A stretch of DNA of 60,933 bases from a virus (taxonomy: Duplodnaviria > Caudoviricetes): positions 1 through 60,933 of the IMG/VR virus record IMGVR_UViG_3300037114_000075; one strand, given 5' to 3'. The position numbers and the translations under genes are program-made. Each line of letters opens with the position of its first letter. Position 1 is the stretch's first letter. Shown piece after piece: positions 31,035 to 54,492 of this stretch. Below the pieces are notes generated by a model. The model searched no databases. It saw only the letters and a list, made by a program, of their open reading frames with translations, and had not been told where the DNA came from.

Positions 31035-31045
31035 AGGAGGACGAG

Positions 31046-31834
31046 ATGAAAAAGCTACATAGCAGGTTCGGGTTGATCTCGGGTTTGGGGTTGCTGATCT
31101 CCGCGCTACCGGCTTTTGCGGCGCCATCGACCGTCAACGATCAGATTCCTGCACCGGTCCCTTCCGCCTCGAACACCACCTTGGGTTCGGAGGTCCTTCT
31201 CCAGAGCTATTCGGTGGGCGGCGGCACTCTCTATCAGAGTTGTTTCCGGGGTTCTGGCGGTCAGGGCGCGGGCGGCAACGGCGGCATTCCTCTGGATTGT
31301 TCTGGCCTCGCCTTCGTCCCGACGAACCTTTCCGGTTCCTTCACCCGTTACATTTCGTTGGCCGATGCTCGGGAAGACAGCGGGCTTCCGCCGACATCGG
31401 CAACCGGATCTGCGACGGCTTTCGGCGTTGCTAGGACGGCTGGCGCATCTTACTCTCTCGTCGGTGCCGCTACCTCGGCCAGTGCGGTCACGACCAAGGC
31501 GATGTGGGAAACCAATGTCGCCTCGACTTACCAAAGCGGAACGGCGATCCCGATTGTGGTCAACGGAAATTATACCGGAAGCGGCACCGTTACGGCGGCG
31601 TCGACCACTTTTTCTGTCGCAGCTTATACAGAGGTGGGCGGCGTCGAGACGGCGATCTCGGGGGTAACCGCAGCGCAGCAATTCACCGGCACGCCGGCCA
31701 ATTACACCTTCAACATTCCGTCGACCGCAGGACTCGTCCCCGGCCAGCATATCGCCATCGAAGTCACAATGCTGGTCACGACCTCGGCCAATGCAGCGAC
31801 CGGGCAGATCAACGCCATCGGCGTCACAGACTAA
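31046..31834 (+). CDS. Beta-rich protein with Sec-type signal peptide in the neck module
   Basis: MKKLHSRFGLISGLGLLISALPAFA; AGGAGG RBS. Confidence 0.75.
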   Translation: MKKLHSRFGLISGLGLLISALPAFAAPSTVNDQIPAPVPSASNTTLGSEVLLQSYSVGGGTLYQSCFRGSGGQGAGGNGGIPLDCSGLAFVPTNLSGSFTRYISLADAREDSGLPPTSATGSATAFGVARTAGASYSLVGAATSASAVTTKAMWETNVASTYQSGTAIPIVVNGNYTGSGTVTAASTTFSVAAYTEVGGVETAISGVTAAQQFTGTPANYTFNIPSTAGLVPGQHIAIEVTMLVTTSANAATGQINAIGVTD

Positions 31835-31878
31835 GCCTTTGATGGCTCCAGCGGCGCGGCGCGCGCGGGAGGCGGCGA

Positions 31879-32715
31879 TTGAATCTTCATCAAGTCGCCT
31901 CCCAGATTGTCGGGGCAATAAATCCGAATCAGGTCGTCGCAGTTCGCAGCAGCATCGGGCCGCTGATCTTGGCAGATGGAAAAGAGGTTCCGAAATACGC
32001 GACGCCTGGGGCGATCACGGCGAGCATCGGCGGGGCTTTCACCGCCTCGGTTCCAGATCCGACCAATCCGACCACTCTCGTCGTTTCCGCCGTTCTGACC
32101 GGCTCTCTTCGGCCCGGCGATGCCGTCTCGGGAACCGACGGCACGAACGCGCTCCCGGTGGGCGCGACGATCATCAAGCAGCTTTCCGGGACGCCCGGCG
32201 CGGCCGGTAGCTATCAGCTCAGCGCCGGGCCGACGACTGGCGCCCTTGAGGCTTGCGAGGTCACCTCAGCCAGTACGGTGCTCAATGTCTCGGTCGTGGC
32301 CAGCGGTGTCCTTCAGCCGGCTCAGACGCTCTCCGATATGACTTCGGCTTTGACCTCCGGCACGATGATCACGTCGCAAATCTCCGGGCTACCCGGCGGC
32401 GCTGGGCTCTATCAATTGAGCGATCAACAAACCGTCGCCAGCGAATCGATGCAGACGTCGATGTCTATCGTCGCGCAGGTCCAAGCGCTGACCGGCGGCG
32501 ATCTCCGCCACATGGATGCCCTTAACCTTCAAGGCTCGCACCGGTCGCTCTATTTCAGCGCCAATGTCCGCGGCGCGGTGCGTGTCTCATTGCGCGGCGG
32601 CGATCTCGTCACGATGCCGGATGGTTCAACTTGGTTGGTGACGCAAGTCGCAGAGCCGTTCTACCACACGGCCGGTTGGCAAAAGGTGATCGTTACTTTG
32701 CAGGCAGGGAGCTGA
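31879..32715 (+). CDS. Head-tail joining protein with two inserted beta modules
   Basis: MNLH..INP; QVQAL..LNLQG..GGDL..WLV. Confidence 0.75.
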   Translation: MNLHQVASQIVGAINPNQVVAVRSSIGPLILADGKEVPKYATPGAITASIGGAFTASVPDPTNPTTLVVSAVLTGSLRPGDAVSGTDGTNALPVGATIIKQLSGTPGAAGSYQLSAGPTTGALEACEVTSASTVLNVSVVASGVLQPAQTLSDMTSALTSGTMITSQISGLPGGAGLYQLSDQQTVASESMQTSMSIVAQVQALTGGDLRHMDALNLQGSHRSLYFSANVRGAVRVSLRGGDLVTMPDGSTWLVTQVAEPFYHTAGWQKVIVTLQAGS

Positions 32716-32718
32716 GAT

Positions 32719-33096
32719 ATGTTCAAGACCAAGTTCAAATTTGCGGTCGCGCTGATCGCGGCGCTTGCGCCAACCATTGCGCTCGCTCAAGGGACGGTTC
32801 CAGGGCAATACATGGTCCCGCTCGGCTATTGCCGGCTTACGGCTACAACGCTCGAATCGGCGACGCCGCTTTCCTCGTGCAGCGGAGGAATCCCCGCGGG
32901 CGCCAGCATGGCGGCTATTCAAGCCGAGACGGCCGCTGTCCGCTATCGGGACGACGGCACGGCGCCGACGGCCTCGGTCGGGATGGAGATCGTCAGCGGC
33001 GCGAATCCTATGCTCTACACCGGGACGCTATCCGAGCTTCAATTCATCGCCGCGAGCGGATCGCCTCTCCTCGATGTAGTTTTCTACCGGCAGTGA
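32719..33096 (+). CDS. Small beta protein with Sec-type signal peptide
   Basis: MFKTKFKFAVALIAALAPTIALA|Q; VRYRDDGTAPTASVG. Confidence 0.75.
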   Translation: MFKTKFKFAVALIAALAPTIALAQGTVPGQYMVPLGYCRLTATTLESATPLSSCSGGIPAGASMAAIQAETAAVRYRDDGTAPTASVGMEIVSGANPMLYTGTLSELQFIAASGSPLLDVVFYRQ

Positions 33097-33097
33097 A

Positions 33098-34069
33098 ATG
33101 GCCTCGATCTCGCCGACTCAATCGAACGCGCAAGCCGCTCTCCGGGCATTCATCCTCGGTATCCTGCCGGCTTTGCCCGGCGGCGGAGGCCCAGCCGTTT
33201 TCTCCGGCTCGATCGAGGGCTCAGCCCTCACGGTGACCGAGGTAATGCTCGGGGCGATCCTAGCGGGCGCGCCGGTGCTCGGCGCCGCGCCGGGAACGCT
33301 CATTGTCGAGCAGACCGAGGGACCCGCAGGCGGGATCGGCACCTACACGGTATCCATTTCTCAGATCATCGGCTCGCCCCCGAGCGGGGCAAATATGGCG
33401 ACGGGCGTCACCGTGATCGCCGGCCAGCAGAACCGCGCCGCAGAGCCGGTCAATCCATGGTTCGTCGTCATGACGCCGATCTCATTCAGGCGGCTCTCGA
33501 CCAACGTCGACGAGGCTCAGGACTGCAAGTTCGTCGCCTCGATCGCCGATACCGAGATGACGGTGACCGAACTCGATGATGGCGCTCTCGCCGTTGGAAA
33601 CCAAATCTTTGGGCCTGGCGTCGCGGCGGGCACCCGCGTGGCGGCCTTCGACAGCGGAAGCGGCGGAATCGGAACCTATGATGTCGCCCCGCCTCAGACC
33701 GTCGCCAGCGAGATCATGTCGGCCGGCACGAAGACGATGACGCAGAATGTCCAGGTCACCATTCAGTGCGATTTCCACTCCCCCGACTTCATCGCTGGCG
33801 ATTTCGCGCAGACTGTAAGCACGGCACTTCGAGACGAGTTCGGTGTCAATTTCTTCGCTGGCCTTGCCGCGCCCCTCAACGGCGTCGTTCCGCTTTATGG
33901 CGATGATCCGAAGCAGACGCCATTTGTGAACGCGGAAAATGCTTATGAATGGCGGTGGGTCTTGGACGTCGAGCTTGAGGTCGAGCAGGTGGTCACGGTC
34001 CCGCAGCTTTATGCCGATTCCGTCATCCCGACTCTCTTTTCCGTCGAAGCAGAGTTCCCGCCTTCCTGA
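33098..34069 (+). CDS. Tail terminator-like protein with two inserted beta modules
   Basis: GQQNR..P, IQCDF, PLY.DDP..YEWRW; precedes the sheath gene. Confidence 0.75.
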   Translation: MASISPTQSNAQAALRAFILGILPALPGGGGPAVFSGSIEGSALTVTEVMLGAILAGAPVLGAAPGTLIVEQTEGPAGGIGTYTVSISQIIGSPPSGANMATGVTVIAGQQNRAAEPVNPWFVVMTPISFRRLSTNVDEAQDCKFVASIADTEMTVTELDDGALAVGNQIFGPGVAAGTRVAAFDSGSGGIGTYDVAPPQTVASEIMSAGTKTMTQNVQVTIQCDFHSPDFIAGDFAQTVSTALRDEFGVNFFAGLAAPLNGVVPLYGDDPKQTPFVNAENAYEWRWVLDVELEVEQVVTVPQLYADSVIPTLFSVEAEFPPS

Positions 34070-34154
34070 AGGGGACAGCGCGACAGGCATAATTGTGGAA
34101 TCCGGCGCGCCGTGTTAATCCTTAGCGGCGCAGAAGCGCGAGGAGGGCCTGACG

Positions 34155-36107
34155 TTGACGACAATTCCGGCCAGCACAATCGTAAACGTCGTTCCGAGCG
34201 TCATCGGAGCTGGCGGGACCGGCCTCAACGGCACCGGCCTGATGTTGTCCTACAACTCGCGCATCCCCAGCGGGACCATACTCAGCTTTCAAGATGATCT
34301 AGCCGTCGAAGATTATTTCGGCGTCGGTTCCTTCGAAGCTGCGGAAGCCGCCGACTATTTCGCTGGGTTCAACGGTGCAACGATATCGCCCAGCACATTG
34401 ATGATGGCGCGGTTCAATCAGATCAGTATTCCCGCTTTCCTCCGCGGCGGTGATATCGCAGGGCTCACCCTCGCGCAGCTTCAATCGATCTCCGGCTCTC
34501 TCGACATTCTCATCGATGGGGTTGCGCACAATGCGGCCTCGGTGAATCTCAGCGCCGTGACGAGCTTCTCGAATGCAGCGGCGACCATCGCAACCGCGCT
34601 CAACGGTTCGCTCGCCAATCTCTTCACTGGAACCGGCGCCATCGCGGCGGAAACCGCAGATTTCACTGCATCGATCGCCGGCCTCACCATGACGGTTACG
34701 ACTGTTGCCTCCGGTAAGATTGTCGAGGGCGGCGCCCTCGCTGGAAGCGGCGTGACTTCGGGAACGCTCGTCGGCGCACAGCTCAGCGGGACGCCTGGCG
34801 GAATCGGAATCTATGCGGTCTCGATCTCTCAGATCGTGGCTTCCGAGGCCCTCACGGAGACCTATGGCGAGCTTACCGTCACAGCGGTCTCTAGCGGCGC
34901 CCTCGCCGTTGGCCAGACGCTCGGCGGGGCAACCGTCGAGGCGGGAACCATCATCACAGCCCTCGGGACAGGAACGGGTGGGGATGGCACATATTTCGTC
35001 AATCTGACGCAGACCATCGCCAGCGAAGCGATCACGTCGACGGGCACGGCGGCAACGGTCGCCTTCGATTCTGTCAGCGGCGCCTTCGTCACCACGTCGG
35101 GCATCGTCGGCGCGGCTTCGACGATGGCTTATGCCACCGGCACTGCGGCCGCAGCTTTGATGCTGACCTCGGCGACGGGCGCTGTCATTTCGCAGGGCGC
35201 GGAGGCTCAGTCGCCCTCGACCTTCATGTCCGCGTTGATCATCCAGAATTCGTCCTGGGTCAATTTCATGACCCTTATGGATCCGGACCACGGAAGCGGG
35301 AACGCCATCAAGCAGGAATTCGCAGCTTGGAAAGATACCGCGCTCGGCGGGAATCGGTTCGGTTATTTCTGCTGGGATCCGGACGATTCGCCGGCGACGC
35401 AATCCGATGCAGCGGCGAGCCTTGGCCAAATTCTCAAAGCGAACGGCGATTCCGGCACGCTTCTCATCTGGGAAGGGGGCCAAACGGAGGATAGCGGCCT
35501 TTGTGCTTTCGCTCTCGGCTGGGCGGCGTCGGTCAATTACGCTCAGACCAATGGCCGCGCGACGCTCGACTTCCGCGCGCAGGCCGGGATCGTCGCCAAC
35601 GTCACCGATCCGCTGACCTCGGGAAATCTCGATTCCAACGGCTACAATTATTACGCCGCCATAGGTGCCGGGAACGCAAATTTCATCTGGTTTCAAACCG
35701 GCCAGATCACCGGCGAATATGCGTGGGCCGACAGTTACCAGACACAGATCTGGCTCAACAGTTTTTTCACCGTCCAGCTTCTGACGCTATTCCAGAACGT
35801 GCTCCGAGTGCCGTTCTCCTCTGCGGGCATCACGCTCATCGAAGAGACCTGCCAGACAGTCATTCAGCAAGGGCTCGCCTTCGGCGCCTTCGGTCCCGAC
35901 ACGCTGACGCCCGGCCAAATCGCCGAGATCAACAATCAAGCCGGCGCGAACGTCGCCTCAGTGCTTCAAAGCCAGGGCTATTACCTTCAGGTCCTATTGC
36001 CGGAGCAGGAAATCCAGGCCGCGCGCGGCCCATGGCCGATAACATTTTGGTACATCGACCAAGGGGCAGTCCAGAAGATCGACATGTCGTCGATCGCGGT
36101 GCAATGA
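34155..36107 (+). CDS. Tail sheath protein, DUF3383 family
   Basis: IPASTIVNVVP, YFG..E, NGYNYY, WYIDQGAVQKI. Confidence 0.9.
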   Translation: MTTIPASTIVNVVPSVIGAGGTGLNGTGLMLSYNSRIPSGTILSFQDDLAVEDYFGVGSFEAAEAADYFAGFNGATISPSTLMMARFNQISIPAFLRGGDIAGLTLAQLQSISGSLDILIDGVAHNAASVNLSAVTSFSNAAATIATALNGSLANLFTGTGAIAAETADFTASIAGLTMTVTTVASGKIVEGGALAGSGVTSGTLVGAQLSGTPGGIGIYAVSISQIVASEALTETYGELTVTAVSSGALAVGQTLGGATVEAGTIITALGTGTGGDGTYFVNLTQTIASEAITSTGTAATVAFDSVSGAFVTTSGIVGAASTMAYATGTAAAALMLTSATGAVISQGAEAQSPSTFMSALIIQNSSWVNFMTLMDPDHGSGNAIKQEFAAWKDTALGGNRFGYFCWDPDDSPATQSDAAASLGQILKANGDSGTLLIWEGGQTEDSGLCAFALGWAASVNYAQTNGRATLDFRAQAGIVANVTDPLTSGNLDSNGYNYYAAIGAGNANFIWFQTGQITGEYAWADSYQTQIWLNSFFTVQLLTLFQNVLRVPFSSAGITLIEETCQTVIQQGLAFGAFGPDTLTPGQIAEINNQAGANVASVLQSQGYYLQVLLPEQEIQAARGPWPITFWYIDQGAVQKIDMSSIAVQ

Positions 36108-36120
36108 CGGAATCCGAACG

Positions 36121-36552
36121 ATGTCTCTGACCGGCGCCAACTCAGCCATTGCGATCACGCAAGCCGTTCTGTTCCCGACCGCTCAGAGCCTTCAAGGTTT
36201 CGCGGCGGATGACGTCACCGACATGGATCCTGTCGAGATCGTCGAATATCTGATGGGCGTAGATGGCGTTCTCTCGGCTGGCTTCACTTGGAAGCCGCGC
36301 CTGCAGAAGATCAGGCTGCAGGCAGATTCGGCATCGAATCTCGTCTTCGACACGATCAACAATCAGTCGCAGGCCGTCCAGGACGTCTATGCGCTCTCCG
36401 CGACGATCCTGCTCCCCGCGATCGGCTTGAAGTTCACCTGCTCGAACGGATTTCTAAGGAACTACAAGCCGATGCCGGCGGTCAAGCGCCTTATCCAGCC
36501 GCGCGATTACGAGATCGTCTGGAACTCGGTCATCCCGGCGCTGACCGGCTGA
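36121..36552 (+). CDS. Tail tube protein
   Basis: LQGFAADD..MGVDG.LSAG..LQADS.S; follows the sheath gene. Confidence 0.85.
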   Translation: MSLTGANSAIAITQAVLFPTAQSLQGFAADDVTDMDPVEIVEYLMGVDGVLSAGFTWKPRLQKIRLQADSASNLVFDTINNQSQAVQDVYALSATILLPAIGLKFTCSNGFLRNYKPMPAVKRLIQPRDYEIVWNSVIPALTG

Positions 36553-36770
36553 TGGTCGGATCGTCCCAAGGATCGCCGTGCCGCTGGTGCGGGGAAGAGC
36601 ACGGACCTCTTTGTCCGTGGATCAAGGCCTTGGAGTTCGATGCCGGCGGCAATGTCATCCGGGCTGAATTCGTCACAGCGGCCGATTTTCCCCGCGCGGC
36701 GCCAGATGGTGAGAAATCTTCCGACGTGCCGAATTACGAAACCTTCAAACCGACGGGAGTTCGCAGGTGA
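36552..36770 (+). CDS. Small Cys/His protein
   Basis: CRWC..H..C; overlaps at both ends. Confidence 0.6.
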   Translation: MVGSSQGSPCRWCGEEHGPLCPWIKALEFDAGGNVIRAEFVTAADFPRAAPDGEKSSDVPNYETFKPTGVRR

Positions 36771-37267
36771 GAAGCAGCGAGATCGTCGTCGTGCCGCCTT
36801 GGGGCAAGCGCGATGCCGGGAAGCATTTTCTGATCACGGAATGGCCGGCGGCGCGGGCGGAGAAATGGGCTGTGGCGGCGCTGTTGGCTTTCAACCGCGG
36901 CGGTGGTCGGTTCCCGATCGAGATGACCGCGGGGATGGGAATGCGCGGCATCGCGGTCCTCGGCCTCGAGACCTTCCTCCGTGGCCAGATGAAGCCCGAG
37001 GAAGTTCAGCCGATCCTCGACGATTTGCTGGACTGCGTTAAGATCGTTCGTGACAAGACGGCGCGAGACAAGGTCACGGGGAAGCCTGTGGCGACCGATA
37101 TCGTCAGCGACGACGACATCCAAGAGGTCCAGACCAGAATGTGGTTGCGCTCGGAGGTCTTGCGCGTTCATACGGGTTTTTCGGTCGGCGACGCTCTCTC
37201 CAGCTTGATCAATTTGATTTTGACGGAGCAGCGGGCCTCGCCGGATACGAAAACGTCTCCGATCTGA
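36767..37267 (+). CDS. Tail assembly chaperone
   Basis: RDAGK.F.ITE; lies between tube and tape measure genes. Confidence 0.8.
   Translation: MRSSEIVVVPPWGKRDAGKHFLITEWPAARAEKWAVAALLAFNRGGGRFPIEMTAGMGMRGIAVLGLETFLRGQMKPEEVQPILDDLLDCVKIVRDKTARDKVTGKPVATDIVSDDDIQEVQTRMWLRSEVLRVHTGFSVGDALSSLINLILTEQRASPDTKTSPI
37174..37180 (+). other. Programmed -1 frameshift heptamer G GGT TTT
   Basis: X XXY YYZ in the correct frame; the -1 frame is open to 37434. Confidence 0.75.
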
Positions 37268-37434
37268 TCGCGATCCTGTTGTCGGCTGATCGGCCCTCGG
37301 TAACGCTGCGCGAGCTCCAGACAGTTTATGGGCTGGAGGATGCCTATGACCTCCTTGAGATAAGGCTCGTCAACGCGCACAATGAGCGCATCATCGCCGA
37401 GCGCGAACGCCGCGATCGGGAAAGGAATCGCTGA
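37180..37434 (+). CDS. C-terminal extension of the frameshifted tail chaperone
   Basis: TLRELQTVYGLEDAYDLLEI; stop overlaps the tape measure ATG. Confidence 0.75.
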   Translation, partial: FGRRRSLQLDQFDFDGAAGLAGYENVSDLIAILLSADRPSVTLRELQTVYGLEDAYDLLEIRLVNAHNERIIAERERRDRERNR

Positions 37435-38960: not shown

Positions 38961-38969
38961 GGGAGAGGC

Positions 38970-39653: not shown

Positions 39654-39656
39654 AAA

Positions 39657-39986: not shown

Positions 39987-39997
39987 ATGGGGCGCAC

Positions 39998-40948: not shown

Positions 40949-40957
40949 GATTCCTTG

Positions 40958-41668: not shown

Positions 41669-41671
41669 TGC

Positions 41672-42073
41672 ATGGACACGCTCATGCTCGACACCGCGCT
41701 GGACGAGAACGGTTTGCCGGTGTGGGATTTAATGGTGGACGCGAATGGCAACATCGCCGTCGCGACTGGCGCGCTCGCGCTCGCGCAAGATGCCGCCTCG
41801 GCGATCAAGACTTTCCTCGGGGAATGTTATTGGGATACGACGATCGGCGTTCCTTGGCTTCAGCAGATTCTCGGCCGGCCTGTCAGTCTCGCGCTTCTCA
41901 AGCAGCAACTTGTCGACGCCGCGCTGACCGTTCCTGGCGTCGCCTCGGCCGTCGTCTATATCTCGGGCTTCTCCAATCGATCCATTGCTGGGCAGGTGCA
42001 GGTCGTCTCGGCGACGACAGGACAGATCGGCGCCGCGAATTTCTCGGTGATTAATCCGCAGGGGACCGGCTGA
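41672..42073 (+). CDS. Baseplate wedge (gp25/gpW-like)
   Basis: WDL..GNIA..FLGECYWDT..GVPW. Confidence 0.8.
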   Translation: MDTLMLDTALDENGLPVWDLMVDANGNIAVATGALALAQDAASAIKTFLGECYWDTTIGVPWLQQILGRPVSLALLKQQLVDAALTVPGVASAVVYISGFSNRSIAGQVQVVSATTGQIGAANFSVINPQGTG

Positions 42074-43947
42074 TGCCCGCAACGAATGTTCCGCCGATCA
42101 TTTGGGGCTTGAATGGTCCGCAGGTTCCGTCCGGCCCTGCGATCCTCTCCGGCGTGCAGGCCGACATCACTGCGTCGTTCGGTACGGCGCTCAATTTCAA
42201 CCTCAATACGCCGCAGGGGCAGCTTTCCTCGAGCTGGGCGGCCGACATCAGCAATGCCTACCAGCTCGTTTCGTATTACGCATTCCAAACCGATCCGGCT
42301 TATGCGCAAGGCCGCATGCAGGACGGCATCGCCGCCATTTACCAGATCACGCGCATCGCTGCGATCCCGACAACGATTCAGGTATCATGCCTCGGCTCTG
42401 CCGCTCCACTGCCGGCGGGGCCGACAAACTTCGCGACCGTTGTCGATCAAACCGGCAACATCTATCAAGCCACTTCGGCGGGCACTCTCCCGGTCGGCGG
42501 GGGCACAATCACGCTGTCCTTCGCCTGCCTGACACCGGGGCCTATTCCGATTCCGAGCGCTCTGACGATCTCGCCGGCGATCCCAGGATGGGATACCGCG
42601 ACGGTCGTCGGCGGCAGCGTCGGCCAAAACACGGAAACATCTCAGCAGTTAGAGCTTCGACGCTCCAATTCCGTTTCGGGCAACGCCCAAAATCTCAACG
42701 ACGCCATTCTCGGACTGATCCTCGGCGTCCCCGGCGTTCTGGATGCCTATGTCGTCGACAATCCGACATCCGGGCCGGTGACGATCGGCGGCGTGGTGAT
42801 CCCGGCCAACACGATCTTTATCGCTGTCACCGGCGGCGCGGCGGCCGCCGTCGCTCAAGCGATTTGGTCGAAGAAGCCACCGGGCATTCCTCTTTACGCC
42901 GGGAACAACAGCCAGACCGTTGTAGATCCAAATCCGCGCTACGTTTCGAATCCGCCTCAATATACGATCACATGGCAAACACCGGCCACGATCCAGGCTT
43001 ATTTCGCGGTGGTCATCGCCAACAGTTCGCTCGTTCCGACAAACGCGACGACGCTCATTCAGCAGGCGATCATCACCGCCTTTCAAGGCGGCGTAGCGAT
43101 CTTTACCGGTTCGATATCCGGCACAACGCTGAATGTCAGCGCAGTTGAGCAAGGCGCGCTGGCCGTCGGGCTTCTTCTCAACGGGCCACGCGTCTCTCAA
43201 AGCACCGTCATCACGGCGCTTGGAACAGGCCAAGGCGGCATCGGCACTTATATCGTGTCCCAATCCCAGATCGTAGCTTCGACGGCGATCTCGGCCTCTC
43301 CGCAAACCAACACGCCGGTTCCCCCGCCGGCGCGCATCGGCTCGACGATATATGCAAACCAATATGGTGCTCTGATCGGCGCTCTCGGATCATGGGCGGC
43401 GGTGAAAAGCCTGCTGGTCGGGTTGAGTTCATTACCGACGGCCTATTTCGTCGGATACATCTCCGGCAACACGCTGACGGTTTTGGTCGCTTCGTCCGGA
43501 ACTATTGCGGTCAATCAGTTCTTGAACGGTCTCGATTCTGCCGCGTCGATTCCAGTTGGCACGATCATCGCGGCGTTGGGGAGCGGGTCTGGCGGGACCG
43601 GAACTTACACGCTCAACAATAGCCTTACACTCGCCGGGGCGACATTCACCGGAACTCGGAACACCGCTGATCAGATCACGGCCAGCGCGGTGACCGGAAT
43701 CATCAATATCGGCGATGTCATAGTCGGCACTGGAATTTCGGCCGGCGTCACCATCACGGGGCAGATCAGCGGCACAACCGGCGGCGCGGGAGTTTATTCG
43801 ACCAGCGCGGATACGTCCGCTTCGAGCGCGTCAGTTACCTGCGGAGCGGCCATAACTGCGGCGGCGGCCAATCAGAATTATGTGGCGCTGGGCATCAACC
43901 AGGAACCGAACATTACAGCGGCGAGCATTTTGGTGAGCTTCGCATGA
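42073..43947 (+). CDS. Baseplate J-like protein with three inserted beta modules
   Basis: TPQGQL, GRMQD, ET..LELRR, VPGVLDA. Confidence 0.88.
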   Translation: MPATNVPPIIWGLNGPQVPSGPAILSGVQADITASFGTALNFNLNTPQGQLSSSWAADISNAYQLVSYYAFQTDPAYAQGRMQDGIAAIYQITRIAAIPTTIQVSCLGSAAPLPAGPTNFATVVDQTGNIYQATSAGTLPVGGGTITLSFACLTPGPIPIPSALTISPAIPGWDTATVVGGSVGQNTETSQQLELRRSNSVSGNAQNLNDAILGLILGVPGVLDAYVVDNPTSGPVTIGGVVIPANTIFIAVTGGAAAAVAQAIWSKKPPGIPLYAGNNSQTVVDPNPRYVSNPPQYTITWQTPATIQAYFAVVIANSSLVPTNATTLIQQAIITAFQGGVAIFTGSISGTTLNVSAVEQGALAVGLLLNGPRVSQSTVITALGTGQGGIGTYIVSQSQIVASTAISASPQTNTPVPPPARIGSTIYANQYGALIGALGSWAAVKSLLVGLSSLPTAYFVGYISGNTLTVLVASSGTIAVNQFLNGLDSAASIPVGTIIAALGSGSGGTGTYTLNNSLTLAGATFTGTRNTADQITASAVTGIINIGDVIVGTGISAGVTITGQISGTTGGAGVYSTSADTSASSASVTCGAAITAAAANQNYVALGINQEPNITAASILVSFA

Positions 43948-44612
43948 GCTTGTCCGGCCCTCCATATCCATTCGCTCCCATTGCCGGCAGCAATGCGATC
44001 GGGTCTTTCCAGATCGGCGTCAGCCCGATCGGGACGATCTCGGCCTTTGACCCATGGCAGACCGTCATTAGCCAATATGCAAATTCACCAATCCTCGACA
44101 TGCTGATCACCTGCTTCAACGCGGCGATCGACCTCACAGAGAATATGGACAATTTCTATGATTATATTTGGAACGTGGCTACGGCGGTCGGCTACGGACT
44201 CGATGTCTGGGGGCGGATCGTCGGCATGTCGAGGACGATCGAGGTTCCGGCGGGCTCTTATCTTGGTTTTGAGGAAGCTGATTCGTGGGTCGGCTTCGGG
44301 CAAGGCACTCTTTATTCCGGTCAAGGTCAATCCGGGACCGCGGTTTCTCTCTCCGATCCGGCTTATCGTCTCCTGATCCTCGCGAAGGCGGCGACGAATA
44401 TCTGGGACGGTTCTATCCCTCAGCTCAACCAGATTCTCCTCAGTCTTTTCCAAGGTCTCGGAAACTGCTATGTTAGGGACAACGGCAACTTGACGATGAC
44501 CTATGTTTTCGACTTCGCGCTGACGCCGGTTCAGTTGGCGATCGTTGAAGCCGGAATTCTTCCTCGGCCAGCGGGCGTCGCGACCTCTATCGTTCAAGGA
44601 GTGATCCCATGA
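43944..44612 (+). CDS. Baseplate wedge, DUF2612 family
   Basis: SQYANSP, TAVGYGLDVWGRIVG, LPRPAGV. Confidence 0.88.
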   Translation: MSLSGPPYPFAPIAGSNAIGSFQIGVSPIGTISAFDPWQTVISQYANSPILDMLITCFNAAIDLTENMDNFYDYIWNVATAVGYGLDVWGRIVGMSRTIEVPAGSYLGFEEADSWVGFGQGTLYSGQGQSGTAVSLSDPAYRLLILAKAATNIWDGSIPQLNQILLSLFQGLGNCYVRDNGNLTMTYVFDFALTPVQLAIVEAGILPRPAGVATSIVQGVIP

Positions 44613-46021
44613 TCAGCGTCATTCGTCGGATTGTAACGCTGGCCGCTTTCTTCTTGGCGACGGCCGCGCACGCAATGACGGCATCGTCGATCCCGACGAA
44701 AGTTCCGACATATTGGGGAACAGGCGCTCAGGTCGGATACATCACATGCCCGATACCGATTCCGTCGCAGATAAGCATCGCTGCTGGCCGCGCGTCTTGG
44801 ACCGACGGATTTCCACCGCTGGTTTTTACGCCGGTCGGTGCCGGGGGGGTGCCGTTTTTCGGTCAAGATCTAAATGGTGTCCTCTGCCAGCTCTCGCAAT
44901 GGACGCGCTGGTATGATGCTGGCGCGCCGATCCCCTATGATTCCGCGTTCCAGTCGGCAGTCGGCGGATATCCTGTGGACGCGATCATCGCCAGTGCGGC
45001 GACGCCCGGTAATTTCTGGATCAACATCGTCGACAACAACACGACCGATCCGGACACGGGCGGTGCTGGATGGAAGCCATGGCCGGCAAGCGGCACGGGC
45101 GTCGGGAATGTTGTCGGGGCCAGCGCATCGGCGGTTGGAAATATCCCCAGCTTCAGCAACACGTCGACGACGGGGATTGTCGATAGCGGCGTTGCGGCTG
45201 CAAGTCTGCAAGCGCTGCTCACCGTCCATGATGAGTTCTACGTCAGTCCTACAGGAACCGACGCGGGGAACTGTACCAACTCGGGCGCGCCATGCCTTAC
45301 CCTCACCTACGCCGCGCAACAGGCGCTGAATTCGAATGCCGGAAATAATGTCCAGATCATCAACATGGCTGCAGGGGATTGGAACGAGACGGTCGATATA
45401 CAGGGCACATCTCCATTCAGCGCCAACACGAATCATAACGATCAACTTCTTTTCGATGGAGATGGATCGGGGAACACGACCTGGAACGGCAGCGGCTCGA
45501 ACTGCGGCACTCTCATTGCCAATGCCGGGGCCAATGTCGGGATTGAAAATCTTACGATTGAAGCAGAGCAGAATGCCTGCTCCAGTTCGCTCTATGCCCA
45601 ACTCACGGGGATCATCCAGGTCTATGGAGGCGTGGTTTTTGGGGCGGCCAATGTGTCCCATATCCACGTCGAAGGCGAAGGTTCGCAGGTTCAGATCTGG
45701 AACAGCTACACCGTCGCAAGCGGCTCTTACACTCTCCAATCTCACATGGCGGCGGTCAGCGGCGGATTGATCGAGATCAATCCGACTTCTGTGGCCGTTG
45801 CGTTCGGGTCCCCATCCCCGACGTATAGCATCGGGGTCTTCTTCGCGCAGGTCAACGGAGTTATTTATCTAGGACAACCGGGGAGTTTCGCGGGCGCTAC
45901 TCCAACTGGACCAAAATACTCCGCCTCGACGAATGCAACGGTTTTCACCGACGGCTATGGATGCTCGAATCTTCCTGGAACCGTCGCCGGGGCAACGGCG
46001 ACCAACGGGATCTGTCAATGA
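44609..46021 (+). CDS. Tail fibre with an N-terminal Sec-type signal peptide
   Basis: ASWTDGFPPL..GGVP..GQDLNG fibre anchor preceded by MISVIRRIVTLAAFFLATAAHA; AAGGAG RBS and ATGA overlap. Confidence 0.85.
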   Translation: MISVIRRIVTLAAFFLATAAHAMTASSIPTKVPTYWGTGAQVGYITCPIPIPSQISIAAGRASWTDGFPPLVFTPVGAGGVPFFGQDLNGVLCQLSQWTRWYDAGAPIPYDSAFQSAVGGYPVDAIIASAATPGNFWINIVDNNTTDPDTGGAGWKPWPASGTGVGNVVGASASAVGNIPSFSNTSTTGIVDSGVAAASLQALLTVHDEFYVSPTGTDAGNCTNSGAPCLTLTYAAQQALNSNAGNNVQIINMAAGDWNETVDIQGTSPFSANTNHNDQLLFDGDGSGNTTWNGSGSNCGTLIANAGANVGIENLTIEAEQNACSSSLYAQLTGIIQVYGGVVFGAANVSHIHVEGEGSQVQIWNSYTVASGSYTLQSHMAAVSGGLIEINPTSVAVAFGSPSPTYSIGVFFAQVNGVIYLGQPGSFAGATPTGPKYSASTNATVFTDGYGCSNLPGTVAGATATNGICQ

Positions 46022-49000
46022 CCAAGGCATTCCTCAGAGCTTTTCGCACGATATGTGTCGGGGCAATGTTGCTTCTGCCGGCTTTGGCTCACGCTCAATC
46101 GGCTTGCTCGTATATCGCCTATGGCGCGGTGCTGACGGCGGCGCAGTGGAATTCCTGCTTTACGGCGAAGCAGGATTATCTCGGCTTCACTCCGCTCAAT
46201 CCGGCCAATTTGATTGGCGTCGCGCCGATCACTGCGACGTCATCTGGCGGAGATCTTTACATCGGGCTGAATTACGGCGGCGGCCTCGGCCTAGTCGGCA
46301 GCGCGCTCAACCTGCTGCCGGCACAGGCCGGCACGCTTGGCGGCATCTTATCGGTCACCAATCCGCCATCGCAATTCTCGACCGGGCCGAACATCGAGGC
46401 GGCGTCCGGTATTCCCATCGGCTGGCCTACCGGCGGGAATTATGCGCCGTACACGAGCTTTAATGTTCAACCCGGGTTCAATCAATTCCTCACCGGGGTC
46501 AACACTTCCGGCCGGCCAATCTCGCGCGGGATTACAACCCTCGCGCCGTCGGTGCTCGGGACGATCACCCCTGGGATGCCCTACGGCGATATGCCGTGCT
46601 GCATGTGGTTTCCCCATTACATCGGCGTCGTGGGTGATGATCTGAACGGCGGCGATCCGACACTTTCGCTCACCAGTCAGCTCATTTCGCAATCTAAAAA
46701 CACGCGCAATTGGTTCATATATAACAATCAAGGTACGCTTCTATTTGCCACTAACGCCGATGCGTTCGAGAGCCCATACGGGAACGATACTGTTGCTGGC
46801 TATACAGCACTTTCTTTTCCCCGAACGAGCCTGTTCCCGCTTTATGCGTCTTTCGGCGAGCCTCTGATTGTATCTTCGGTCCCGGCAAATGGCTGGTTTC
46901 TTTTTGACGCGCTGCCAAATAACGGCGATGTCGCCGGTGTGAACGGGACCAATGTCACCTTCACAAGCGGAACCCCGACCGGCAACGAAGTCGCGATCTC
47001 CCAAGGAACGGCTCAATTCACCGGCAGCATTTCCTTGGCTTCCACTACGTTTCAGGCGACGATCTCCAGAAGCTTGATGATCTTGACTGGGCCTTGCGTC
47101 GGAGGCCCGATAATCAATCGTGCCGTCATAGCTGGCACGGGCATCGTGGCTGGGCCGCACACGCCCGCGCCGAACATGGGGCTCACCGCGAGCCCGGTGG
47201 TCAACGGCCTCGTTTCGGGCACGGCATGCGAGCCCGGCGCCACCTATGCGATTTCCGAGAACGAGACCGTAGCGACGCCGGAAACGGTCACGCAAACCTA
47301 CGGCGTGCTGAACGTCCCGACAAATCCGGGGACGATCAATGTCGGGGATATTCTAACCGATCAATCCGCCGACATTCCGCTGCTCACCACGATCATGGCG
47401 CAGGAGGATGCGAACGATTACTACGTCAACAATTCGACGCCGGTTTCCAGCGAGGCGATGTACTCCAACGCCGTGCAACTGACGCTCGCGAACCTCGACA
47501 TATTTCTGCAAGGCTCGGCCGACACGAACATCGACAAGGGCGTCTACAACAAGGACGGCGCCGATGAAGAAATTATAAAGTATTACAAAACCGGCACGCT
47601 TGGAAATGCTTTTACGCTTTCCACCACCAGTTCCAATATCACTCCATCTGGCGCGACGCTCGCCGGGGGAGGCGCCCAAGGGAACATATTCCAAGGAGAC
47701 ATGAGCCTCCAGACCTACCAAGACGGGACGGGGGGTGTGTTCAGCGCACCCCAAGTGGACGCAACAGCTGGCTCAACCCTTTACGGGGCAACAATCGGCG
47801 CGGCTGGTTTGGTGGCGACTACAGCTATTTCATACTTCGGCGATACCAGGATTCAGAACATCGGCACGGACTACCCGCATATAAACTTTCTTAATCTCAA
47901 CGCGACGGCTGGCGACCAATACGGAAACGAGCAACTTGATTTAAGCGGCACCCTTCACATAGCAGCCGGGGCCTATGGAAGCTCATCGGACTGGCTGACC
48001 ATGACGCAGACGACGGGCGTAGCGACGCAGATCAACGCGCTCGTGCCGACGATCATAAATCTGACCGGCGCGGCTCTGTCGGCTAAGCAAACCGGAACGG
48101 CGCTTCAGATCGCTGGGGCAAACGGCGTCACGACGCGCGTCGAGTTGGATGGATTCGGGACCGGGGCCACGGCTGGCGCGCCACGCTATACCTGCGTTCG
48201 GGGTGATGGCACAGGCGCGTCACCTACGGCAGTGCAGTCTGGCGACGAGATCTGTTCGCTCAATACATTTGCATATTACGGTGCCGGAACCTCCGCCGGA
48301 CCTGCGGCTGCGTTTCGCACATATGCTGCGCAGAACTGGGGCACTGGGGCTTACGGAACCTACTCAGATATTGCCACGACGCCGATTGGCAGCACCACAC
48401 TCACGTCGGTAATCCGGTTTGAGAATGACGGCGGAATCGATTGCACGGGCGTCACCGGCGGCGACAAAGGGCCGGGCTCGATCAATTGCGACGCGATTTA
48501 TGTCAACGGCGTCCCGGTCATCACGTCCGCGCCATACCTGCCGCTTGCCGGCGGCACGATGGCCGGCCCGATCGCCATGGCCGGCTACAACATCACGGGC
48601 ATAGGGGCGCTGTCGCTCTCGGGACAAATCACCTCCACCGAAACAACCGGCACGGCCCCGTTCGTCGTCGCCTCGACCACGCAAGTCGCCAATCTCAATG
48701 CGTCGCAATTGATCGGCGCGAATTGGGCATCGCCCGGCGCAATCGGGGGCACCACACCGGCTGCTGGTGCGTTTACCACGCTCGCGGCCAACGAGCTGAA
48801 TTTGCCGACCACATCATCCTCGACGGTGGGTGTGCTCAATATCAACGGGGCACCCTTCATTCAAGCCTACGGAACGAACAATGCGTTCTTCGGCGGATCT
48901 GGCAATTTCACGCTAACGGGAGTCGCGAATACCGGGATCGGTAATGGCGCCTCGCCCGGGCTCACGAGCGGTAGCAACAATGTTGCAGTTGGAAAGAATG

Positions 49001-50082
49001 CGCTGCTCTCGGACACAATCGGCGGCGACAACATGGCGCTGGGCTACGGCGCTTTGGATAACAATGTCTCAGGAAACTACAATGTAGCGGAAGGCTACAG
49101 CGCGGAAGTCTCTGCAACCGGCAGCGAAGACACTGGCATAGGTGGTCAGATTTTCCCGAATCTCACTGGGGGTTCGTTCAATACCGCCATCGGCTACGAT
49201 GCCGGCCAAGGCATCACGAGCGGCAACGATGACACGATCATCGGCGCGGCGATCAATCTCGGCGGCAACTATTCCAGCATAATCGCGATCGGCACCGGTG
49301 ACGGAACGGTACGAGCCGATTTCGGCTTTACCAATTCCGGCAAATGGACGCTGACCGGCGGCCTTGTCGTCCCGGCTCTGACGACGGCGGGCCTCGCCAC
49401 GGTGACCTCGGCCGGCCTGTTCGGCAGCGAGGCCAGCGCGACCGTTCCGCAAGGCGGTACCGGCCTCGCAACGCTCACCGCAAACACGATCTACAAGGGC
49501 AACGGCACCAGCGCGCTGGCGGTTTCGTCGATCACCGATAACGGGACGGTTGTGGCCACGGCGGAGAACGTCACCTTCTCCGGGTTGGCGACAAGCGGGA
49601 CAATAGCCGGGGCGCTCTGCGCCACCTCAGGAGGATCGGTCCTTTACGAAACTGGCGGCTGCGGGCTTGGCACTGGATTCACAACAGCTGGGACAGGGTT
49701 GGCGGCGGCCGGGGCCACGATCAATTCCAACGGGGTTGCGTTCGTTTCGTTCCAGCCGGGCTTGATGACCGCCGTCTCGGGGAATATCGCCGGGTTCCAT
49801 AAGTTCTCGAAAGCCTCCACCGTCGATAATATCGAAGGCTCTGCGCAGCAATTCAGTTGCACCGTCAATCCGACGATCACTATGTATGAGTGCGGCACCA
49901 GCGCTACGTGCACAAGTCCTACGACCATCGGCTCAGCCACCTTGACGGCGACTTCGACAAGGACTGACGGAACGATATCAAGCGCTTCCATCGCGGCAGG
50001 CGATTCGATCGCCTTCGCAATCACCGCTGGAACTTGCGTCACGCTCGATGCGAGCTTAACCGCGCAAGTCCATTCGAACTAG
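46018..50082 (+). CDS. Long tail fibre/adhesin with Sec-type signal peptide
   Basis: MTKAFLRAFRTICVGAMLLLPALAHA|Q; YLPLAGGTM; N-x-A-x-G adhesin-like repeats. Confidence 0.85.
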   Translation: MTKAFLRAFRTICVGAMLLLPALAHAQSACSYIAYGAVLTAAQWNSCFTAKQDYLGFTPLNPANLIGVAPITATSSGGDLYIGLNYGGGLGLVGSALNLLPAQAGTLGGILSVTNPPSQFSTGPNIEAASGIPIGWPTGGNYAPYTSFNVQPGFNQFLTGVNTSGRPISRGITTLAPSVLGTITPGMPYGDMPCCMWFPHYIGVVGDDLNGGDPTLSLTSQLISQSKNTRNWFIYNNQGTLLFATNADAFESPYGNDTVAGYTALSFPRTSLFPLYASFGEPLIVSSVPANGWFLFDALPNNGDVAGVNGTNVTFTSGTPTGNEVAISQGTAQFTGSISLASTTFQATISRSLMILTGPCVGGPIINRAVIAGTGIVAGPHTPAPNMGLTASPVVNGLVSGTACEPGATYAISENETVATPETVTQTYGVLNVPTNPGTINVGDILTDQSADIPLLTTIMAQEDANDYYVNNSTPVSSEAMYSNAVQLTLANLDIFLQGSADTNIDKGVYNKDGADEEIIKYYKTGTLGNAFTLSTTSSNITPSGATLAGGGAQGNIFQGDMSLQTYQDGTGGVFSAPQVDATAGSTLYGATIGAAGLVATTAISYFGDTRIQNIGTDYPHINFLNLNATAGDQYGNEQLDLSGTLHIAAGAYGSSSDWLTMTQTTGVATQINALVPTIINLTGAALSAKQTGTALQIAGANGVTTRVELDGFGTGATAGAPRYTCVRGDGTGASPTAVQSGDEICSLNTFAYYGAGTSAGPAAAFRTYAAQNWGTGAYGTYSDIATTPIGSTTLTSVIRFENDGGIDCTGVTGGDKGPGSINCDAIYVNGVPVITSAPYLPLAGGTMAGPIAMAGYNITGIGALSLSGQITSTETTGTAPFVVASTTQVANLNASQLIGANWASPGAIGGTTPAAGAFTTLAANELNLPTTSSSTVGVLNINGAPFIQAYGTNNAFFGGSGNFTLTGVANTGIGNGASPGLTSGSNNVAVGKNALLSDTIGGDNMALGYGALDNNVSGNYNVAEGYSAEVSATGSEDTGIGGQIFPNLTGGSFNTAIGYDAGQGITSGNDDTIIGAAINLGGNYSSIIAIGTGDGTVRADFGFTNSGKWTLTGGLVVPALTTAGLATVTSAGLFGSEASATVPQGGTGLATLTANTIYKGNGTSALAVSSITDNGTVVATAENVTFSGLATSGTIAGALCATSGGSVLYETGGCGLGTGFTTAGTGLAAAGATINSNGVAFVSFQPGLMTAVSGNIAGFHKFSKASTVDNIEGSAQQFSCTVNPTITMYECGTSATCTSPTTIGSATLTATSTRTDGTISSASIAAGDSIAFAITAGTCVTLDASLTAQVHSN

Positions 50083-50096
50083 CCGGCACAGGGGGC

Positions 50097-50147
50097 TTTA
50101 CAATTGCGGTTAGAACGCATATAGACGCATTGCGTTTCAACCGCAAT
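50097..50147 (+). promoter_or_regulatory. Promoter overlapped by a long inverted repeat
   Basis: TTTACA-17-TATAGA; ATTGCGGTT (50103-50111) / AACCGCAAT (50139-50147). Confidence 0.65.
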
Positions 50148-50163
50148 GAAGGAAATCGTCCAT

Positions 50164-50709
50164 ATGAAAATCGCACCCTTGCTCGGCGCATGCGTCGTCG
50201 CCGGCGTCGGCCTTGCGCCCGTTCCGAGTTTCGCTCAAACCGACGATAAGGCAGCTGGACCGCCGCCGACTGCGGTCGCGGATTCTTCCGCCGCCAGCGG
50301 CACCGTGACCGTGAAAATGTCCATCAACCAGGTCATCGGGCTTCAAAAGGCGATCTCCGGGCTCGACTCCTATACGGATACCGATGCGACCGGAAAGCCG
50401 GTGACCAAACGCTACATGTTCAGCGTTCCGACACGCATCATCCTTGCGCAAGATTCTGCGGCCCTGAATCTCATATCGAGCGCCGTGCAGGCTCAACAGA
50501 CCACGTTGCTGAGCGACATTTCCGGCGGCGCCGGTTACCTGAAGCCTGGATCGCCGGAGACCGCGAAATTCAATCTTGAGTCCCTCAAGCTCGGCGAACA
50601 GCAGGAACCCGTCGAACTCGACACGCTGACGGAGGCGGATCTCGGTCTCGAACGCAATCCAATCCCGACAGGCGTGCTCGCCGCGCTGACGCCGATCATC
50701 GCAAAATGA
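50164..50709 (+). CDS. Post-fibre helical protein (possible fibre chaperone) with Sec-type signal peptide
   Basis: MKIAPLLGACVVAGVGLAPVPSFA|Q; C-terminal VEL..L...DL..IP..VLAAL.PII. Confidence 0.7.
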   Translation: MKIAPLLGACVVAGVGLAPVPSFAQTDDKAAGPPPTAVADSSAASGTVTVKMSINQVIGLQKAISGLDSYTDTDATGKPVTKRYMFSVPTRIILAQDSAALNLISSAVQAQQTTLLSDISGGAGYLKPGSPETAKFNLESLKLGEQQEPVELDTLTEADLGLERNPIPTGVLAALTPIIAK

Positions 50710-54427: not shown

Positions 54428-54492
54428 CGCCGACCTTCCTGCACCCGCCCAAGAACGTGATCACATTCGCGCTGACGGGTAAATGGACATGA
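54424..54492 (+). CDS. 22-aa peptide ending NVITFALTGKWT
   Basis: ATGA overlaps at both ends; paralog of the 53484 C-terminus. Confidence 0.45.
   Translation: MTPTFLHPPKNVITFALTGKWT

Follow-up and report, generated by a model that had tools for sequence, protein, structure and literature searches.

The window analysed here is the whole of the IMG/VR virus record IMGVR_UViG_3300037114_000075, a stretch of 60,933 bp that has direct terminal repeats, a G+C content of ~60%, and a CheckV completeness of 77%. The phage from which it derives is an uncultured myovirus, as can be seen from its genes for sheath, tube, tape measure, baseplate hub, W, J, DUF2612, portal, and terminase proteins. Our analysis concerns five open reading frames (ORFs) in its morphogenesis cluster whose products appear to carry Sec-type signal peptides. 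All five lie on the plus strand and are designated below by their first position. They encode (i) a protein of 262 amino acids (aa) situated among head-completion and neck genes (31046..31834), with a predicted 25-aa signal peptide (31046-31120) and 2 cysteines in the mature part; (ii) a 125-aa jelly-roll protein (32719..33096), with a 23-aa signal peptide (32719-32787) and cysteines at positions 38 and 54; (iii) a tailspike, termed fibre 1, with a 22-aa signal peptide that ends in A-H-A (44609..44674) and a mature part with 8 cysteines (44675..46021) that matched phrog_12796, "tail fiber protein," with an E value of 6.5e-29; (iv) a long fibre, termed fibre 2, with a 26-aa signal peptide that likewise ends in A-H-A (46018..46095) and a mature part of 1328 aa with 16 cysteines in close pairs (46096..50082); and (v) a 181-aa protein encoded downstream of fibre 2 (50164..50709), with a 24-aa signal peptide and no cysteine in the mature part.

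The translations agree with the original prediction, which had assigned a basic N-terminal region (n-region), a hydrophobic core, and an A-x-A site to each of the five ORFs. The cores measure 13 to 18 residues and belong to starts that are preceded by Shine-Dalgarno (SD) sequences, and the putative peptides end in ..PAFA (31046), ..ALA/Q (32719), ..AHA/M (44609), ..AHA/Q (46018), and ..SFA/Q (50164). SD-like sites were found before 31046 (AAGGAGG), 32719 (GGAG), and 50164 (GAAGGAA). In the case of 44609, the ATG upstream of the ancestral fibre start had been proposed as the probable start, and this proposal is supported by an AAGGAG located 7 nucleotides (nt) upstream and by an ATGA overlap with the DUF2612 gene; the start of 46018 overlaps the 44609 stop by ATGA as well. 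A recount of the cysteines in the mature regions also gave the numbers initially reported, i.e., 2, 2, 8, 16, and 0 for 31046, 32719, 44609, 46018, and 50164, respectively. Most of them occur in close pairs, such as 47/93, 222/229, 30/47, 726/746, and 809/824. For comparison, 42 cysteines are distributed over the 6064 aa of 21 other structural proteins of the window, and the count is odd in 12 of these 21 proteins, whereas it is even in all six signal-peptide proteins of the window, namely, the products of the five ORFs and of 55376, which is described further below.

The home-made loose filter for n-, h-, and c-regions is weak when used alone, since at least one candidate start passed it in 24 of 87 rough ORF calls, and the case against chance must therefore rest on conservation in relatives. 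The same filter also flagged 55376 (..AHS/Q) and two lipobox ORFs, 56139 and 60185 (the latter on the minus strand). In contrast to these two, none of the five ORFs has a cysteine at position +1. Export through the Tat pathway was considered and rejected: the peptides are short (18 to 32 aa), and RR is no more common in their n-regions, as judged by eye, than KK, RK, or a single R. Taken together with the family comparisons that follow, the data provide good support for the five N termini being functional Sec-type signal peptides that are cut by signal peptidase I. The same comparisons show that these predicted peptides are conserved by property and not by sequence.

In fibre 1, the signal peptide is followed by a baseplate-adaptor domain (residues 23-160, including Cys47 and Cys93) and a right-handed beta-helix (residues 205-470). 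Residues 28-157 matched 141 phage records, among them annotated fibres of Burkholderia, Pseudomonas, Ralstonia, Xanthomonas, Acinetobacter, and other myoviruses, and none of these records aligned upstream of residue 28. Two fibres of cultured phages begin at the residue equivalent to Met23 of fibre 1 and are devoid of a signal peptide. From a large protein collection, we retrieved 304 homologs with E values of ≤1e-5, and the best 120 of these were analysed. An N-terminal extension of 18 to 32 aa with a basic start and a hydrophobic core was present in 51 of the 120, and the remaining 69 start at the ancestral Met. The extension ends where the signal-less homologs begin, which is in agreement with the earlier view that the signal peptide is located directly in front of the ancestral fibre start.

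For 52 signal-bearing fibre 1 proteins, the position of the cleavage junction was set by alignment to signal-less fibres and not by motif. Position -1 was occupied by A in 44, G in 4, and S in 3 proteins (A/G/S in 51/52), position -3 by A in 48/52 (A/S/C in 51/52), and position -2 by a bulky residue, i.e., F, L, H, W, or Y, in 41/52. The -3/-1 rule was obeyed in 50/52 proteins, and Met or Leu was found at +1 in 48/52. All 52 n-regions have 1 to 3 K/R among the first 8 residues, and the hydropathy maximum over 12 residues ranges from 2.1 to 3.1. An apparent signal peptidase I site that falls exactly at the ancestral N terminus is hard to explain without cleavage.

The original interpretation also assumed oxidative folding. 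The signals do co-occur with gained cysteine pairs and with even cysteine counts, as expected for export and Dsb-type folding. C47 and C93 are invariant in 30/30 aligned signal-bearing members of the fibre 1 family and absent from the signal-less homologs. The cysteine count of the mature protein is even in 49/52 signal-bearing but in only 37/69 signal-less fibres (Fisher P of 5e-7, not corrected for ancestry), and the mean counts are 6.3 and 2.3, respectively.

A quick tree search with the mature part of the adaptor domain (123 rows and 136 columns) united 44 signal-bearing rows, including the window, in a single clade with a support of 99 in the Shimodaira-Hasegawa-like approximate likelihood ratio test (SH-aLRT), and this clade has no signal-less member. 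Further signal-bearing lineages were found elsewhere in the tree (P0064/87/121/136, P0066, P0076, P0086, and the long-branched P0033). The tree requires at least 6 changes, although supported branches alone force only one. By this phylogeny, the signal trait of fibre 1 is both stable and recurrent. On the 35-kb contig L004, the fibre 1 signal peptide is nearly unchanged with respect to that of the window.

L004 is the only close viral relative for fibre 2. Its fibre 2 shares the mature start with that of the window but has a signal peptide of unrelated sequence, and DNA homology between the two genes resumes at codon +1. Residues 1-330 of fibre 2 were matched by eight proteins, namely, the window's own public gene call, that of L004, and six distant homologs, each of which has its own, differing signal peptide in front of the same N-module. 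This module begins with Q-S-x-C and contains a second invariant cysteine 17 residues later; position +1 is Gln in every homolog read. A signal peptide was present in all nine viral loci that contain the fibre 2 module (9/9, with L048 judged by eye). The fibre 1 encoded upstream of the module is signal-bearing in L046, L047, L049, and L051 and signal-less in L048, L050, L052, and L053. Further into the protein, a similarity to the fibre or spike genes of various phages, including Roseobacter, Pelagibacter, and Bacillus SPO1-type phages, extends over residues 945-1120, with identities of 32-42% and E values of 4e-9 to 6e-4. One fibre 2 homolog carries PF13884; the fibre 2 of the window itself gave no match to Pfam, PHROG, or PDB sequences. 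In its public gene call, P0013, the protein starts at a Met inside the signal peptide and has 1338 instead of 1354 aa, so that the automatic annotation hides the signal peptide.

Other exported-looking proteins were noticed next to the fibres of relatives. A signal-bearing protein of 1121 to 1934 aa with 18 to 38 cysteines follows a signal-less fibre 1 in L022 (10914-14279), L027 (9297-13154), and L033 (10787-16591); the signal peptides of these large proteins are K-rich, as judged by eye, and a tblastn search with the L027 protein gave no match in 50,697 phage records. In L004 (14308-14562, corresponding to 16308-16562 of L006), an 84-aa signal-peptide ORF with 2 cysteines, which is absent from the window, is located between fibre 2 and the 50164 homolog.

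Of the two small proteins encoded in the neck region, 31046 belongs to a family whose mature start is conserved. In ~81 of 104 homologs, this start follows a signal peptide, as assessed by eye and hydropathy, whereas in signal-less members (e.g., P0182, P0199, and P0222) it forms the N terminus of the protein; the homolog of G002 is signal-less with a different N terminus. The number of cysteines is 2 in the closest ~20 homologs and 0 or 1 in most of the remaining ones. Searches of Pfam, PHROG, and the PDB did not place 31046 in any family; LpoB, which appeared in a PDB profile search with an E value of 0.008, was not trusted as a relative.

The family of 32719 is far larger and comprises 1977 representatives at E values of ≤1e-3. 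Among the complete relatives, G002 has a signal-less version of 94 aa, and the version in G004 is signal-bearing with two cysteines. In the alignment of signal-bearing members, the first cysteine forms part of a G-Y-C-Q motif and the second is located ~16 residues further on, whereas in signal-less members, Q, G, or A stands in place of the first cysteine and the second is missing. Out of 141 family rows, the first cysteine was present in 60 and absent from 30 rows with a signal peptide, as opposed to 3 and 48 rows, respectively, without one; the second cysteine was also present in 56/63 rows that have the first. The AlphaFold2 model of 32719 (predicted local distance difference test [pLDDT] score of 89) is a small jelly-roll. 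In BFVD, it matched uncharacterised phage proteins of ~100 aa only (best E value of 8e-6), and none of the solved structures scored above background, the best being spike P1 of PM2 with a Z score of 7.9. Pfam and PHROG contained no family for 32719, and a PDB profile search was empty. Neither 31046 nor 32719 gave a tblastn match in the 50,697 deposited phage records. As a separate observation, P0251 is a signal-bearing protein of 2162 aa with 19 tandem copies of a 32719-type jelly-roll domain, and this domain hence also builds very large secreted proteins.

Homologs of 50164 with a signal peptide adjoin the fibres in L004 and L009. The protein itself matched no family of Pfam or PHROG (E values of ≤0.01 or 0.001), and the Atlas returned only unnamed viral hypothetical clusters, with a best score of 0.90. 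The initial interpretation was upheld in part. Its signal peptides and their co-occurrence with cysteines are supported, but its functional labels are not: "neck appendage" for 31046 and 32719 had been derived from gene position alone, and a jelly-roll match at a Z score of 7.9 is not above noise, whereas "fibre chaperone" for 50164 likewise reflects position only, with no match to a known chaperone family.

The analysis thus makes it very probable that the proteins in question are exported via Sec, cleaved, and folded oxidatively. Two arguments lead to this assessment. (i) Four independent families encoded in one gene cluster share a signal peptide and a cleavage motif at the ancestral start. 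(ii) In fibre 1 and 32719, the cysteines come and go with the signal.

A census of related loci, from which four duplicate loci were dropped and in which a relaxed filter was applied at homology-consistent starts, indicated which virion proteins lack such peptides. No signal-bearing member was found among the tube (0/21), J (0/37), W (0/36), DUF2612 (0/40), tape measure (0/14), bp39657 (0/27), and bp38970 (0/7) proteins, whereas 7/7 proteins with the fibre 2 module and 12/34 fibre 1 proteins were signal-bearing. The filter was also passed by 9/31 hub proteins; these nine were rejected by eye, as the segment in question is a conserved amphipathic strand of 10 residues. Single passes in bp40958 and in g36767, which is truncated by the end of its contig, look spurious. 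The census thus shows that convincing predicted signal peptides are confined to peripheral proteins, with none on the core tail proteins.

Fibre 1 is encoded directly after the J and DUF2612 genes, and this synteny is kept in related loci. The baseplate J-like wedge protein (42073..43947, plus strand; phrog_6, E value of 1.1e-28) and the DUF2612 baseplate protein (43944..44612, plus strand; PF11041, E value of 1.4e-53) both lack a signal peptide, and the latter is the predicted docking site of fibre 1. The J protein of the window has ~625 aa, and so has that of most loci whose fibre 1 bears a signal; in most loci whose fibre 1 is signal-less, J has 403-480 aa. Exactly one copy of the adaptor domain was found in each of 5/5 records, two of which have terminal repeats, and the domain has 31 invariant columns in the signal-bearing clade.

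Residues 205-470 of fibre 1 were modelled with pLDDT values mostly >80. The beta-helix matches (VIA) had Z scores of 17.9-13.4 and a root mean square deviation of ~3 Å over 200-240 residues, and included the tailspikes of Pam1, Fri1 (gp49), and phi29 (gp12), enzymes acting on pectin or alginate, and VexL. Foldseek returned only weak rows when the fibre 1 model was compared with the PDB (best E value of 0.015), and sequence and profile searches of the PDB with fibre 1 gave no match.

As a monomer, the N-terminal domain of fibre 1 was predicted to fold poorly (pLDDT of 30-55). Modelled as a trimer of residues 23-160 on DUF2612, it reached an ipSAE value of 0.80, compared with 0.00 for the best of three controls; the pLDDT of the partner was ≥93, and at least 92% of the contacts were common to the runs. 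In the calibration, the mark was reached by 58/80 solved complexes and 2/110 mismatched pairs, counts that apply only roughly to the fibre 1 job, which used its own alignments and several copies. The modelled interface involves fibre 1 residues 68 and 72-88, which are conserved in signal-bearing and signal-less fibres alike. The model therefore predicts that the N-terminal domain of mature fibre 1 docks on a DUF2612 protein that has no signal peptide and would be made in the cytoplasm.

On this basis, we propose, still tentatively and at slightly less than an even chance for the whole chain including virion incorporation, that this phage lineage has moved peripheral proteins of its virion module out of the cytoplasm. 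The exported set would consist of the baseplate tailspike fibre 1, the long fibre 2, the two small neck-region proteins, and one fibre-adjacent accessory protein. Their precursors would be made late, exported unfolded through the Sec translocon of the host, and cut after A-x-A; in the periplasm, the proteins would then fold and trimerise, and host Dsb enzymes would close the cysteine pairs. Heads, tails, and baseplates, all formed from proteins without a signal peptide, would meanwhile assemble in the cytoplasm. The endolysin (54483..55064, plus strand; phrog_181, E value of 1e-29, and a weak GH19 match) lacks a signal peptide, which implies holin-dependent lysis that starts with holin lesions. 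Once the holin had opened the inner membrane, the cytoplasmic and periplasmic pools would mix inside the still-closed envelope, the N-terminal domain of mature fibre 1 would dock on DUF2612 and J, and fibre 2 would dock next via its disulfide-stapled N-module. We infer that the exported proteins are joined to the particles at or after lysis. Attachment is favoured by the fact that fibre 1 is the phage's only baseplate fibre, by the conservation and predicted docking of its adaptor, and by the restriction of convincing signals to the last-added, outermost parts. In the case of T4, fibre-less particles in extracts are known to take up fibres.

A number of points weigh against this proposal. (i) Export, cleavage, and disulfide formation are themselves deduced from sequence comparison, and the DUF2612-fibre 1 complex is a prediction. 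(ii) The counts that link signals and cysteines are uncorrected for shared ancestry. An independent-pairs test in the 32719 family, which was underpowered with 5 supported pairs, yielded a mean of 2.1 pairs in which the cysteine changed the same way as the signal and 0.1 in which it changed the other way (median P of 0.5). (iii) There are 30 signal-bearing homologs of 32719 without the cysteine pair, most signal-bearing homologs of 31046 have 0 or 1 cysteine, and 50164 has none, so that disulfides are not the whole reason for export. (iv) A Pfam scan of 49 window proteins, small ORFs excluded, revealed no Dsb protein, thioredoxin, signal peptidase, or SecB-like protein of the phage's own. (v) No precedent for attachment after export was found in tailed phages, and the step would need to take place within seconds or would follow dilution at lysis. 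(vi) Scans of phage records and contigs revealed no cultured member of the signal-bearing fibre 1 clade, and 31046, 32719, and the large L027 protein likewise have no cultured relative with these forms among the 50,697 phage records. (vii) In many relatives, fibre 1 is signal-less although fibre 2 bears a signal, an arrangement that fits secreted proteins outside the virion equally well.

This last point leads to the main rival, according to which the signal-bearing fibre-like proteins, once exported, serve in the host cell envelope during infection and do not become part of the virion. Fibre 1 would use its beta-helix to degrade or mask newly made polysaccharide or receptors of the cell surface from within the periplasm, and components of the envelope would be bound by fibre 2 and the small proteins. 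Superinfecting phages would thereby be excluded, or progeny would be kept from adsorbing to debris, in analogy to Llp of T5 or Lom/Bor of lambda. Sec-type peptides and an oxidative cysteine signature suit any periplasmic role, and beta-helices are common to carbohydrate-active enzymes, including the periplasmic capsule depolymerase VexL, which matched fibre 1 with a Z score of 14.8. The presence of signal-bearing proteins of the fibre 2 type downstream of a signal-less fibre 1 in L048, L050, L052, and L053, the clustering of extra signal-peptide ORFs after the fibres of relatives, and the use of the 32719 domain in large secreted proteins such as the 19-copy, 2162-aa one can be added to this side. 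Nevertheless, fibre 1 is the only adaptor-domain protein in 5/5 records, so that a phage in which it was kept off the virion would have lost the fibre that all signal-less relatives possess. The strong conservation of the adaptor domain in the signal-bearing clade with its 31 invariant columns, the predicted docking of this domain on the phage's own DUF2612, and the lack of any reversion in the 44-row clade also speak against it, and we consider a purely envelope-based role unlikely, while giving it more weight than the remaining alternatives. In the first of these, a single gene would supply two pools, i.e., an exported envelope form that makes up most of the protein and a signal-less virion isoform that results from internal initiation at the ancestral start or from precursor that escaped Sec. 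In favour of this possibility, Met or Leu occupies +1 in 48/52 proteins. Of 13 signal-bearing loci with DNA available, 4 (the window, L006, L010, and L012) have retained the ancestral Met as an ATG directly behind the cleavage site, and 3 (L007, L009, and L011) have TTG; the others have CTG (3 loci) or CTC (3 loci). The ATG at +1 thus permits a minor signal-less isoform in the window phage, which counts against our proposal as well. However, no SD-like sequence precedes the first mature codon in any of the 13 loci, including the downstream Met start of the window (44675) that had been named as a counter-case, and 6/13 loci have CTG or CTC at this position. Judged from these codons, internal initiation is not a conserved or general feature of the signal-bearing clade. 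Moreover, +1 of fibre 2 is Gln in each of the homologs read, and the cysteine pair within the adaptor domain argues that it is the exported form that is under selection for adaptor function. We thus regard two pools from one gene as quite improbable.

Least probable of all, with only a slim chance, is that nothing is exported and that the N termini are either uncleaved helices, serving as a membrane tether or as an aid to assembly or trimerisation, or the product of wrongly extended starts. The false positives given by home-made filters, such as those in 9/31 hub proteins, and the database call P0013, which begins inside the fibre 2 signal peptide, are compatible with this explanation. On the other hand, it is the long forms that have SD sites and ATGA overlaps, and the extension is conserved in its properties in 51 fibre 1 homologs, all fibre 2 homologs, and many homologs of 31046 and 32719. 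An A-x-A at the exact homology junction in 50/52 proteins would be useless without signal peptidase, and the link between cysteines and signal would be left unexplained. 

A broader idea can be put forward, although with slightly more reserve than our main proposal. Tailed phages might possess a second, extracytoplasmic assembly compartment. In a large uncultured lineage, the outermost parts (the tailspike, the long fibre, and the small jelly-roll proteins of the neck region) would be delivered via Sec, cut by signal peptidase, and stapled by host Dsb enzymes, and they would be snapped on after the holin has been triggered but before the outer membrane ruptures. In that case, the repeated changes of a single protein family from a signal-less, cysteine-free form to a signal-bearing, cysteine-paired form and back would represent an evolutionary switch of general use, by which virion parts mature either inside or outside.

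In the textbook view, tailed phages are assembled entirely in the reducing cytoplasm. The closest known systems are the Bcep1/BcepNY3-like, Burkholderia vB_E436/PE067, and Pseudomonas Orisa myoviruses, which have the same J-DUF2612-fibre order as the window. The adaptors of their fibres are 45-54% identical to that of fibre 1 over residues 28-157 or 60-157, and a variable receptor-binding C terminus is also a shared feature; however, these cultured fibres lack a signal peptide, whereas fibre 1 of the window adds one of 22 aa as well as two invariant cysteines. In filamentous phages (Ff/Inoviridae), pVIII and pIII have cleavable signal peptides, are inserted or exported by host machinery, form disulfides in the periplasm, and are added to the particle at the envelope. 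The likeness to the window phage lies in the use of signal peptides for virion proteins, the receptor-binding protein among them. The difference is that filamentous phages are assembled by extrusion and have no cytoplasmic capsid or contractile tail, whereas heads, tails, and baseplates of the window phage are signal-less; no sequence relationship was seen. Llp of T5, Lom and Bor of lambda, Cor of phi80 and N15, and Sp and Imm of T4 have signal peptides or lipoboxes, are encoded beside fibre genes, and act in the envelope. They are small and unrelated to virion proteins, whereas fibres 1 and 2 are tail fibre homologs and fibre 1 has kept its baseplate-adaptor domain. Lys44 of fOg44 and Lyz of P1 are endolysins with a signal peptide or signal-arrest-release (SAR) sequence, i.e., late proteins that reach the periplasm via host Sec before lysis; they differ in being lysis enzymes and not structural proteins, and the endolysin of the window has no signal peptide. 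The mosaic adhesive fibres of Bdellovibrio are secreted, tail-fibre-like trimeric adhesins with a signal peptide, a conserved N-module, and variable tips. They resemble the fibre 2 family in architecture but are encoded by cellular genes and placed on the bacterial surface, whereas the fibre 2 genes are located directly after baseplate genes in complete genomes of phages.

A literature search, which covered titles and the starts of abstracts and left most subscription journals outside, revealed no report of a Sec signal peptide on the tail fibre of a tailed phage. In passages of PMC12210884, PMC3556154, and PMC5026251, the term "signal peptide" referred to cargo tags of extracellular contractile injection systems (eCIS), an entry in a reference list, and a line in the methods. 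There is a substantial chance that tail fibres with a secretion signal mark a new assembly route. The receptor-binding proteins of the window myovirus and of dozens of distinct relatives have cleavable-looking secretion signals accompanied by cysteine pairs. Should they belong to the virion, a periplasmic step in phage assembly has so far gone unrecognised, infectivity would depend on host Sec, signal peptidase, and Dsb, and disulfide-stapled fibres may account for stability in soil and water. If they do not, fibre-like proteins secreted into the envelope of the infected cell would form a new class of late envelope effectors. In addition, annotation pipelines that trim such N termini will mis-annotate them, signal peptides on receptor-binding proteins are relevant to host prediction and fibre engineering, and the paired signal-bearing and signal-less forms offer a ready natural experiment.

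Some further proteins of the window look exported. A 92-aa protein encoded beside the endolysin (55376..55654, plus strand) has a signal peptide and 4 cysteines in its mature part and was missing from the original list. The two lipobox proteins have ~127 aa (56139-56522) and ~278 aa (59349-60185, minus strand). None of the three was assigned to a Pfam or PHROG family. By analogy with the small envelope proteins of other phages, 50164, 55376, and the two lipobox ORFs may well be exclusion-type proteins, and in the case of 50164 and 55376, no observation speaks against this.

Among the head and packaging genes of the window are those for a terminase-like protein, portal, a Mu-F-like protein, a DUF2213/NUDIX protein, and a capsid protein that is ~44% identical to the capsids of Aeromonas phage 56-type myoviruses. 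The tail genes encode tail terminator, sheath (34242-36107), tube, tape measure, baseplate hub, W, J, and DUF2612, and the baseplate genes are followed by the two fibre genes and then by methylases and the GH19-like endolysin. A megablast search with positions 31000-51000 gave no match in the 50,697 phage records, and the phage thus has no near relative at the DNA level in this set. A profile scan of genome contigs identified a single locus with a signal-bearing fibre 1, on a 4.8-kb contig of a Sulfuritalea metagenome-assembled genome (MAG); further hints at the host came from a Bradyrhizobium MAG and a Gemmataceae MAG among the protein matches.

Several minor features were noted outside the five genes. 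The window encodes a DnaJ-domain protein (11637-12263) and four DNA methyltransferases (6243-6905, 9133-10557, 52047-53390, and 53588-54427), three of the N6/N4 type and one of the C5 type, as well as one tRNA-Met with the anticodon CAT (3629-3704, minus strand). The head module contains a NUDIX-DUF2213 fusion (23089-24240), and an HNH-like ORF (21909-22505) and an ORF with a NUMOD3 motif (25735-26454) are located within the head gene block. A 279-aa ORF with 8 cysteines (28510-29349) overlaps the end of the capsid gene by ~125 nt, has no Pfam family, and may not be a genuine gene. Finally, an insert of ~70 aa that matches phrog_38233 and phrog_21413 occurs in the tail terminator (33098-34069; residues 140-210), in the sheath (residues 210-292), and in J (residues 340-409), and it looks like one decoration-type domain that was copied onto three tail proteins.

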